Positions 40,201-43,200 of a stretch of 64,000 nucleotides of DNA are shown in pieces. Each line of letters starts with the position of its first letter. Position 1 is the first letter of the stretch. The stretch is taken from assembly GCF_030013205.1 (NCBI RefSeq), contig NZ_CP122648.1. One strand, given 5' to 3'. Made by a program: the position numbers. This DNA comes from Escherichia coli (GTDB lineage Bacteria; Pseudomonadota; Gammaproteobacteria; Enterobacterales; Enterobacteriaceae).

Positions 40201-43200
40201 CTGCCGACATACTTATCAGCCAGAGGAGTAAACGGCTTCAGGTTGTTCATGATGGTGTTGAACTGCTGATTTTGCAGGTCTGCTGCATACTTCTGAGCTT
40301 CTGCGGCATACTTTGCACTTTTATCAGAACTGCCACCTTTCCCGCCTTTTTCAGGGCAATAAGGTTCCTCGCCGCGCAGTTTTCTGCCCAGCTTAAATGC
40401 ATATAACATGGCTATCTCCCGTGCTTCAGGAAGTCGATTAGTTCTTCGCGTGTGGCGCTGTAAAACGTCACGTCATCCACGCCTTTGAAGTATTTCTTGA
40501 TGGTTCCTACACGCTTAAGGCCAATCATTGCGCAGTACATCTGCCCGTGGCGGAATTTGCGTGCAGCGAACGATGTGACGCACTGAACGGTGGTGTTAGT
40601 CAGAATGTATCGCCAGAACGCCAGCCCGATTTCCTTGCTGAAGCCGCGAATCTCTGGCAGGTACATGGCGTGGCAATCAAAGGTCAGCGGCTGAATCTCC
40701 TGATAGTAAACAATTCCGCCGAACTGCCCGTGCACGTTCACCTCAAAGTAACGGCATTCAGGCTTGTAGTCGTATCCATCGCCGTTGTTGCTCCCGGCGA
40801 TAATGTCAGGGTGATTTCCTACTGCTTCGATCAGGTCGATGTTTCGCGTTGGTTTGAAATGAATCATCACTGCTCCGCGATTATCTTGATGGTTGTGGCA
40901 GTAAACGCCGCACCATTCGACTGAATGGTTAACGTGCTGCCATTTGTGGCAAGAAAGCCGTCTTTATCCACGCTGAAGAACGTAGCTAACAGGATGTTGT
41001 CGGTTGTTGTCGCTGAGTTGCGACTGCTTACCAGTGTGTCAGGAACAGAACCGGAAAATGTTAGCTGCATTGACCTGTTGGCGGTTCCGCTGGGCCACGT
41101 CCCGACGATCGACAGCTTGAAGAACAAGGTTTTGTTCTCGTTGAACACAACCATCTTGTTGTTAACGGTGTCGAAGAATGGTGCCAACGTGCCGGATGAC
41201 GGCGTGAGCGTTTTCAGCAGGCTAACAAGGTTGGTAGGCGCTGTCGGAATTGTTACCGATACCCCTGAGTAAACAACCTCTGATTTCTTGCGCGTGGTGG
41301 CATACTCAAGCGCAGATATTCTTGTTGCGTGATCACCAACTGTGCTTTGTAGCGTCGAAATACTTCCCTCTGCCGCTGTGAGCCTGGTATCAAGTGCGTC
41401 GATATCGGTTGTATTCTGAGTTATGCGCGCATCATGGTTTGCTAACTCAGATTCATTGGCAGCAATTCGCGTATCGTGATCAGCCAGCTCTGTTTCAGCA
41501 GCCGTAATCCTTGTTTCATGATCTGCAAGAGTGCTTTCCGCTGTTGCAATTCTATGTTCATGATTGATGAGAGTTGCTTCAGCAGCTTCAATTCTGGATT
41601 CATGGTCTGCAAGGGTGACATCCTGCTCATCGTTCCTAACCTGTGCATCATAAGCGCCCTGTCCGGCCTCGTTGGCTTTGTTAGCCACGTTACCAACATC
41701 AGTGCCCTGTGCGATAACGTAAAGCAGATACGACTGCGAGAAGATATTGCGTGGAAGGACTGATGTGTCGAGCCGTGTAGAGCATTGTTCGTGCCATTGT
41801 CTTCTCCCAATAAAAATGGGGCCGAAGCCCCACCAAAATTACTGCCCGGCAATAACGATGCCCGTATATTCAGGAACAAGTACAGAGCAACCGTACAGAG
41901 TGGTGAAACGCGCAGTGGTTACGCCTTTGATGTGGTCGAAGGCGTAAGACATGATCAGCGTAGCGCCCTGCTCGGTGGTTGCTGTCATTACCTGTGGACC
42001 CTGACCAGTCGGGAACGCCAGTTTGCCGTACATCAGCTCAACAGAACCATCAGCCCAGAACAGGTTGGCCGGTGCGGCATTCTTGTTGAGAATGGTGATT
42101 GCTGCGCTACTTGCCGCGTTAGCATCAACGTTTGCATATGGTCGGCTGGCGACATCCGCGTTGTCAGGCGGCAGAATTTTCGGGGAGATAGTTACTGTCG
42201 TTCCGCTTACTGCCAGAACGCGGAATACCTGCGGCTGCCCGGTGGTATCTTTGGTGATCTGGTGTACGGAATTAACCCCTGCAATGGTAAACGCATCGCC
42301 AACCTGCAAACCTTCAGCAGATACCGTAATGGTCCCCTGTCGGTTATCCACTGGCATATCGTTAGCATCTTTCGCTTCAACCTTGTGCGCAGGTGCTGCT
42401 GCCAGCGTAATGGAAGTTGCTGTACCCTTCGGAACACGACCAGAAATATCGGTCTTGTAGCTATCGAAGGACGCAACAGGAGGGATCTGCGCTTTTTCGT
42501 ATGCTGTCAGGGTTGCGCCCTGAGCATAGGCACGGTGACCAAGCTCGCCAGCAAGGTCTTTGTAGTTGAAGGGGTTCCAGAAAGAGCGACGATTGATACC
42601 CTGCGGTACACCAATCGCCGTCATGGTGGCATCAATACCTGCCGCACAGTTCCACAAATCACGGCCCTGTGTACCTGTGGTTGAGTCAGCCATCGTGATC
42701 ACGTTAGTAGCACGCTGCGTGACCATGGAAATCAGGTCCGAGTCAATCTGTGCAGCAAGGCGCATACCTGCGGCGCGACCAGCTTCAGTTTTATGTTCCG
42801 GGTCACGCATTTCACGCGCATCCAGAGTGTACAGAATGTTTTTCGGCTCCTTGAACACAGAAGGAACAAGGCGCTGAACCAGTGCTGTTGGCGTTTTGCT
42901 GCTGAGGTCGAGGCCTTCCTCAATGTTCATGTGGTAATGCTGCGGACGATACAGAACATCACCTGCTCGCTGCATTGCTGTATCACCGGGACGGAATTTT
43001 TTAGCGTTACGGGAAACTACGCAGGCGGCCTCAAAGCCTTCAACGTAGTTTTCGAACATGATTTCAAGGTCTTTTGCTAATTGGTTAGCCATGCTTAATG
43101 CTCCGATAGGTTATTTTTTTGCCTTTTTAGCGGCGAAATACGGCGTCCAGTCACCAGTTTCCAGCGCCTTGGCTTTCAGTTTGTCGAGGTTATTGATTAC

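Follow-up and report, generated by a model that had tools for sequence, protein, structure and literature searches.

A probable 2,081-bp deletion has left a P22-like prophage remnant of Escherichia coli without its tail adaptor and tail hub genes

The late operon of a P22-like prophage remnant in E. coli ETEC4079 passes from the coat gene to a truncated tail-needle gene, and this arrangement very probably goes back to one event, the loss of 2,081 bp from the late operon of an HS1/Sf6-type P22-like prophage. The remnant was analysed in a window of 64,000 nucleotides (the whole stretch of DNA under study), which is 100% identical to the ETEC4079 chromosome NZ_CP122643.1. ETEC4079 is an E. coli from pig faeces (Belgium), and a literature search for the name returned no paper on the strain. 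The remnant is of the HS1/Sf6 type and lies between ybhC and ybhB, with the lambda attB as its insertion point and its late genes on the minus strand. Gene order begins with int, xis and Rz/Rz1 fragments, continues with small and large terminase, portal, scaffold, coat, a 'tail needle knob protein', a gp14-type gene and gp7/gp20/gp16-type ejection proteins, and ends with an immI-like region (arc, ant) and the tailspike. The terminase, portal, scaffold and coat ORFs (146, 471, 732, 297 and 417 aa) stand in the canonical P22 order. Also present are the other components expected of a P22-like late operon: gp14, the three ejection proteins (gp7, gp20, gp16) and a tailspike that has a head-binding domain. 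The pair expected between coat and needle, gp4 (Ad3) and gp10 (Hc3), is missing because the deletion removed both genes. The remnant is a defective member of the P22-like (Lederbergvirus, HS1/Sf6-type) family.

The features around the junction are given below in window coordinates.

41839–43092, minus strand: intact ORF for the P22-family coat protein, 417 aa; stop codon TAA at 41841–41839
41815–41834, minus strand: post-coat stem-loop, 8 pairs when extended; core GGGGC-TTCG-GCCCC at 41831–41818, then a T-run
41778–41797, minus strand: retained 5' end of a conserved 62-aa ORF (ATG plus 6 codons, MARTMLY)
41778–41780, minus strand: junction of the probable deletion, microhomology CTA (3 bp), from a three-way alignment; NZ_CP122643.1:3456471–3456473
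41699–41797, minus strand: chimeric 32-aa ORF, 7 codons of the small ORF followed by 25 out-of-frame codons from needle DNA
40867–41780, minus strand: 5'-truncated HS1/Sf6-type tail-needle gene with C-terminal knob, residues 14–317 of 317
40867–41817, minus strand: PGAP CDS 'tail needle knob protein', WP_282843021.1, 316 aa, 951 nt, start called at ATT
40412–40867, minus strand: intact gp14-type gene (DUF2824), the next gene 3' of the needle, overlapping the needle stop codon

The E. coli HS prophage (HS1), the closest intact relative, carries 2,081 bp that are absent from the remnant. When window positions 44100–39700 were aligned with HS1 by blastn, two gap-free blocks were obtained (98.5% and 97.5% identity) that share 3 nt (query nt 2321–2323) and are offset by 2,081 bp, bearing out an internal deletion that had been proposed from the window alone. 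A 1-kb query over the site split at query nt 521–523. Its left part (the 3' end of coat, the hairpin and the start of a 'hypothetical protein') matched Huey, Kapi1, JEP4 and Sf101 at 97–98%, and its right part matched the needle gene of phage Gally at 99%, beginning at nt 41 of the Gally gene. In the three-way alignment, the small-ORF parent reads ...AATGCT-CTA-TAAGCC..., the needle parent reads ...TTCAGG-CTA-CACGG..., and the window reads ...AATGCT-CTA-CACGG.... The parental sequences are contiguous up to this short shared motif, as in an illegitimate deletion, and no inserted bases, IS, long repeat or recombinase site was found at the CTA junction.

The HS1 annotation places the 62-aa ORF, gp4, gp10 and the start of the needle gene within the extra 2,081 bp. 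Gene order in the intact state is coat, 62-aa ORF, gp4 (Ad3, 153 aa), gp10 (Hc3, 472 aa) and needle, with PHROG support from phrog_1175, phrog_637, phrog_578, and phrog_1219 together with phrog_1030. What was lost comprises codons 8–62 of the small ORF, gp4 (adaptor) and gp10 (tail hub) in their entirety, and 40 nt at the 5' end of the needle gene; the last of these amounts to 13 codons plus 1 nt, more than the roughly 10 codons first estimated. In such a deletion, codon 7 of the small ORF would have been joined to nt 41 of the needle gene at the 3-bp CTA. The route may have been illegitimate recombination, by either replication slippage or microhomology-mediated end joining; the sole pointer to it is the 3-bp microhomology, a match so short that it could arise by chance at a random junction.

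Searches of the window and of other genomes point to a loss private to this strain. No gp4 or gp10 homologue was detected by tblastn anywhere in the 64-kb window (E <= 1e-3), in agreement with the sequence-only reading. Among 5,426 complete E. coli genomes the junction is present in one; about 140 E. coli genomes have the same 4.4-kb region plus the extra 2.08 kb. The parental 24-mer is present in at least 120 IMG/VR contigs, and the 86 with at least 2.4 kb of downstream sequence were examined. Full gp4 and gp10 lie 3' of the same small ORF in 85 of these 86 relatives, with the spacing found in HS1 in 75 of the 85; the remaining one has gp4, and its locus ends within gp10. A lineage that naturally lacks gp4 and gp10, one of the circumstances named at the outset as refuting the deletion, is ruled out by the approximately 140 genomes together with the IMG/VR relatives. 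The 25-mer spanning the junction had no match in IMG/VR or in JGI metagenome contigs. The exact junction is a clean marker for ETEC4079, since no other collection searched contains the 25-mer.

The element bears a second private deletion. Compared with the STEC383 prophage at the same attB, 17,001 bp are missing; at the junction (window 49483–49479), which has a 5-bp microhomology, a gene fragment next to xis is joined to the 3' portion of Rz/Rz1. Every early, immunity, replication, nin, antiterminator and holin/lysozyme gene went with this segment, so that no replication or regulatory genes are present between xis and Rz, and the late operon is left without its activator and promoter (Q and P_late). 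The genes int, xis, terminase, portal, scaffold, coat, ejection proteins and tailspike are kept intact. No frameshifts or stop codons were found in the surviving late genes, all of which are full-length and 95–99.5% identical to the genes of intact relatives. The element is a cryptic prophage of about 20 kb. That its surviving genes are intact and both of its junctions are private to the strain suggests that the decay is recent. We regard this as ordinary microhomology-mediated prophage decay of a well-known kind; its biological weight is small, and it adds one more case of rapid, strain-private prophage inactivation by short-microhomology deletions.

A second and more degraded P22-like remnant lies at argW on the same chromosome (1.582–1.595 Mb of the record). 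Its gp10 is intact (472 aa, 91.5% aa identity to HS1), of its gp4 there is left a 3' piece of 102 nt, joined to part of a small-terminase gene, and its needle gene is cut after residue 121. The search for intact gp4 or gp10 elsewhere in the element under study found neither; of the two P22-like loci examined (the attB-lambda window and argW), argW has an intact gp10 and neither has an intact gp4. Trans-complementation by the argW remnant was considered and rejected: gp10 could be supplied, but the gp4 fragment and the shortened needle could not serve.

At argW, gp10 and needle are separated by a free-standing HNH/NUMOD4 homing-type endonuclease gene (WP_000947776.1), which is intact and sits precisely at their boundary. 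On its right side the 2,081-bp deletion ends 40 nt from the equivalent gp10|needle boundary, which is empty in the endonuclease-less copy. It is conceivable that a break at this site was resected asymmetrically and then closed by microhomology-mediated end joining. If the argW endonuclease had triggered the deletion in this way, by cutting or nicking the empty site in the attB-lambda prophage, one prophage remnant would have killed another. We consider this trigger very unlikely, and no co-conversion toward the argW allele was seen in the retained 5' DNA of the needle gene.

The argW locus bears as well on the quality of the assembly. It contains gp10 (at 91.5%) and the 5' end of a needle gene, and such repeats could in principle confuse an assembler, in which case gp4 and gp10 would really be present at attB-lambda and 2 kb would have been collapsed. 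Several observations make an artefact of this sort very unlikely. The junction lies outside the sequence common to both remnants and offers only 3 bp, whereas a repeat-driven collapse would require a long homologous stretch; the chromosome record is circular and finished; and the other deletion of the same element has the same microhomology signature.

Sequence on the coat side of the junction is close to that of intact relatives. The coat protein (named 'P22 phage major capsid protein family protein' by PGAP) is 99.5% identical to the HS1 coat over 417 of 417 residues. It is followed by a hairpin with the core GGGGCTTCGGCCCC at 41831–41818 on the minus strand and TTTTTATT directly after the extended stem. 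The hairpin has a terminator-like score and a predicted RNA minimum free energy of -16.1 kcal/mol (z = -2.6), and its sequence is identical in Huey and HS1; the stem-loop is inherited unchanged from the parent phage. Both the coat stop codon and the hairpin had been noted in the sequence-only reading and are present, but they reach or slightly exceed the upper limit of the interval 41689–41838 to which that reading had assigned them.

Next comes an SD-like GGGAGAAGACA just 5' of an ATG at 41797–41795. An ATG frame preceded by a strong SD and running out of frame into the needle sequence had been predicted at about 41796–41798, and it was found here. It had been tentatively taken for the start of gp4, an assignment that does not hold: gp4 begins about 170 nt further downstream in every intact relative, and its N-terminus is MAKTKGDL rather than MARTMLY. 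The ATG is instead the start of the 62-aa ORF, which normally sits between coat and gp4 and is annotated in Huey (CDS0006), Sf101 (Sf101_0006) and HS1 (ECHS_RS01560), with which the retained start is identical as far as the junction. The full-length 62-aa protein matches phrog_1175 (function unknown, E = 9e-29). Since 2,081 mod 3 = 2, translation from this ATG now reads 25 out-of-frame codons of needle DNA and stops at a TGA (41701–41699), 10 nt ahead of GTG 41688. The resulting 32-aa ORF gave no match in a PHROG profile search, and this junk peptide is all that can now be read from the small ORF's ribosome-binding site.

The needle gene is truncated at its 5' end, as had been recognized from the window. 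Residues 14–317 of the HS1 needle (317 aa) align to 41781–40870 with 97.7% identity over 304 aa (tblastn, E = 0). The phrog_1219 profile is covered at positions 15–112 by the remnant needle and at positions 1–111 by the intact HS1 protein; phrog_1030 (knob) also matches the remnant needle (E = 1e-128). The remnant needle retains shaft and knob; its plug domain is short of residues 1–13, and the gene lacks its start. An absence of start codons had also been claimed for this frame, and read from the coat stop it indeed contains no ATG, GTG or TTG ahead of GTG 41688. The remnant needle begins about 60 nt behind coat and in the same frame. A coat–needle readthrough fusion was considered on account of this shared frame, with one TAA and 19 sense codons between the two; the coincidence found no further support, and the idea was dropped.

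The truncated gene is presented in RefSeq as an intact needle protein of 316 aa that starts at ATT 41817 and would have a variant N-terminus. PGAP calls an uninterrupted CDS of 951 nt, and the frame is open from the coat stop. That this protein is complete and functional is nevertheless highly improbable. The first 12 codons of WP_282843021.1 are hairpin, intergenic and small-ORF DNA, the last read in another frame, and are unlike any needle N-terminus. No SD precedes the ATT, which falls within the 3' end of the extended, terminator-like stem; the sole SD serves the out-of-frame ATG. The phrog_1219 profile aligns only from position 15, the missing residues belong to the conserved N-terminal plug (PMC3741392, PMC9728967), and the element has neither the gp4 adaptor nor gp10, to which the needle binds. 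In our view the start of WP_282843021.1 was called on homology and is an artefact that masks the truncation. Homology-guided start calling can in this manner present a 5'-truncated pseudogene as an intact protein, and here the ATT call keeps prophage-completeness tools from seeing a structural deletion that is lethal. The truncated needle might still be weakly translated, either from ATT 41817 or from GTG 41688 by re-initiation after the 32-aa ORF.

Loss of these genes would be expected to block tail assembly altogether. The P22 tail body is made of gp4 (12 copies) and gp10 (6 copies), and the needle closes the channel with its N-terminal end; without this plug, DNA falls from the capsid (PMC3741392). 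The parts are added in a strict order (adaptor, hub, needle, tailspike), and it is the conserved N-terminal helical hairpin of the needle that plugs the hub (PMC9728967). The 13 lost codons fall in this hairpin, the plug of the hub channel. Because adaptor and hub are gone and the needle is without its first 13 residues and its start, no tail should form, and by analogy with P22 the element would be unable to assemble a tail or to retain packaged DNA. The prediction that it cannot build a tail hub agrees with the absence of gp4 and gp10 relative to intact relatives.

By analogy with capsid-forming PICIs, the element might instead be a natural, functional lineage or satellite without a tail hub that makes capsids and borrows adaptor and hub from a helper, a reading to which the intact genes from int and xis through terminase, portal, scaffold, coat and ejection proteins to tailspike, and the intact gp10 available in trans at argW, would lend themselves; it can be dismissed almost outright, because the arrangement is in only 1 of 5,426 genomes, 98%-identical relatives possess gp4 and gp10, the needle is cut out of frame and not cleanly re-engineered, replication, regulatory, late-activator and lysis genes are absent, and gp4 is intact in neither P22-like locus examined. 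The marks of cf-PICI-like elements (a replication/regulatory module of their own, a helper switch and a widespread tail-less architecture) were not found.

Among intact relatives, the remnant resembles HS1 most closely. HS1 (E. coli HS; Leavitt et al. 2013, PMC3741392) has the same scaffold-to-gp20 gene order and 98% nucleotide identity over the 4.4 kb compared, with amino acid identities of 99.5% for coat, 97.7% for needle and 99% for gp7, and both have a long-shaft needle with an Sf6-type knob. HS1 differs in being at another chromosomal site and in having a full early region and the 2,081 bp. Among other relatives, Huey, Kapi1 and Sf101 share the coat, the post-coat hairpin and the small-ORF start at 97–98%, and the gene lengths of the remnant from terminase to coat equal those of Huey. 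From nt 41 onward, the needle gene of Gally agrees with that of the remnant at 99% identity. The gp16-type ORF aligns over 91% of its length with the Sf101 transglycosylase, at 97.6% identity. In contrast to the remnant, Sf6, Sf101, Huey, Kapi1 and Gally (Lederbergvirus) are complete and viable, with Ad3, Hc3 and a full needle.

Cryptic or defective prophages formed by internal deletions are a general phenomenon in E. coli. The remnant shares with them its integration at an att site, the retention of int and xis, the loss of essential modules and junctions with short microhomology. It differs from them in that its decay is apparently very recent and strain-private, with late genes free of frameshifts and stop codons.

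Relative to the STEC383 prophage, which occupies the same attB, the ETEC4079 prophage lacks 17,001 bp. The element and the site of this loss were located as follows:

Window about 30540-51036: prophage element at lambda attB.
Window 49479-49483: junction of the 17,001-bp internal deletion, with 5 bp of microhomology.

The deletion leaves a truncated gene beside xis fused with the 3' portion of Rz/Rz1 and, among 5,426 genomes, was found in ETEC4079 only. It is the 'first' internal deletion of a prophage that also carries one of 2,081 bp, the latter having removed gp4, gp10 and the start of the needle gene. 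Behind the coat gene (window 41839-41781, minus strand), the needle remnant lies in the coat frame, the two being separated by no more than the TAA that ends coat and 19 sense codons; this common frame is probably a coincidence.

The truncated needle is presented by PGAP as an intact 316-aa protein (WP_282843021.1; window 40867-41817, minus strand), its start being a non-canonical ATT within the 3' end of the stem of the post-coat hairpin. An uninterrupted 754-aa gp16-type ORF (window 36057-38321, minus strand) matches phrog_21143 and phrog_770; 91% of it aligns with the Sf101 'transglycosylase', at 97.6% identity. Of this ORF, the PGAP annotation shows just an internal stretch (window 38189-37074), as a pseudogene fragment named 'lytic transglycosylase domain-containing protein'.

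The chromosome that holds the attB prophage also contains a second, heavily degraded P22-like remnant at argW, in the locus designated L007:

L007 about 27,500-40,534 (NZ_CP122643.1 1,582,000-1,595,533): second P22-like remnant, at argW.
L007 29824-30357: intact gene for a free-standing HNH/NUMOD4 endonuclease of 177 aa (phrog_59, E = 2e-49).
L007 40,932-50,000 (NZ_CP122643.1 1,595,931-1,605,000): region adjoining the remnant, described from annotation alone.

Within the argW remnant gp10 is intact, a 3' fragment of gp4 is joined to a terS fragment, and the needle gene, retaining residues 1-121, is joined to an acyltransferase fragment. The insertion point of the endonuclease gene is exactly the boundary of gp10 with the needle gene; the endonuclease gene is rare in deposited phages, with a partial DNA match in HZ41 only. 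The remnant also includes IS1, gtr-type genes for O-antigen modification, and intS.

A few IMG/VR relatives, which are contigs with the parental sequence of the small ORF (a conserved 62-aa frame between coat and gp4), carry about 500-690 extra bases inside the gp4-gp10-needle segment (L080 and four other loci). In L080 a 686-nt gap separates gp4 from gp10 (4684-5370), and in some relatives the distance from the small ORF to the needle gene is 2554-2730 rather than the usual 2057. These extra bases may represent further mobile endonuclease insertions.

As annotated, a PemK/MazF toxin-antitoxin pair adjoins the argW remnant, and a gene block beside it, with a P2-family major capsid protein, an ogr/Delta zinc-finger gene, an integrase and a large toprim-domain protein, resembles a P4-type satellite.
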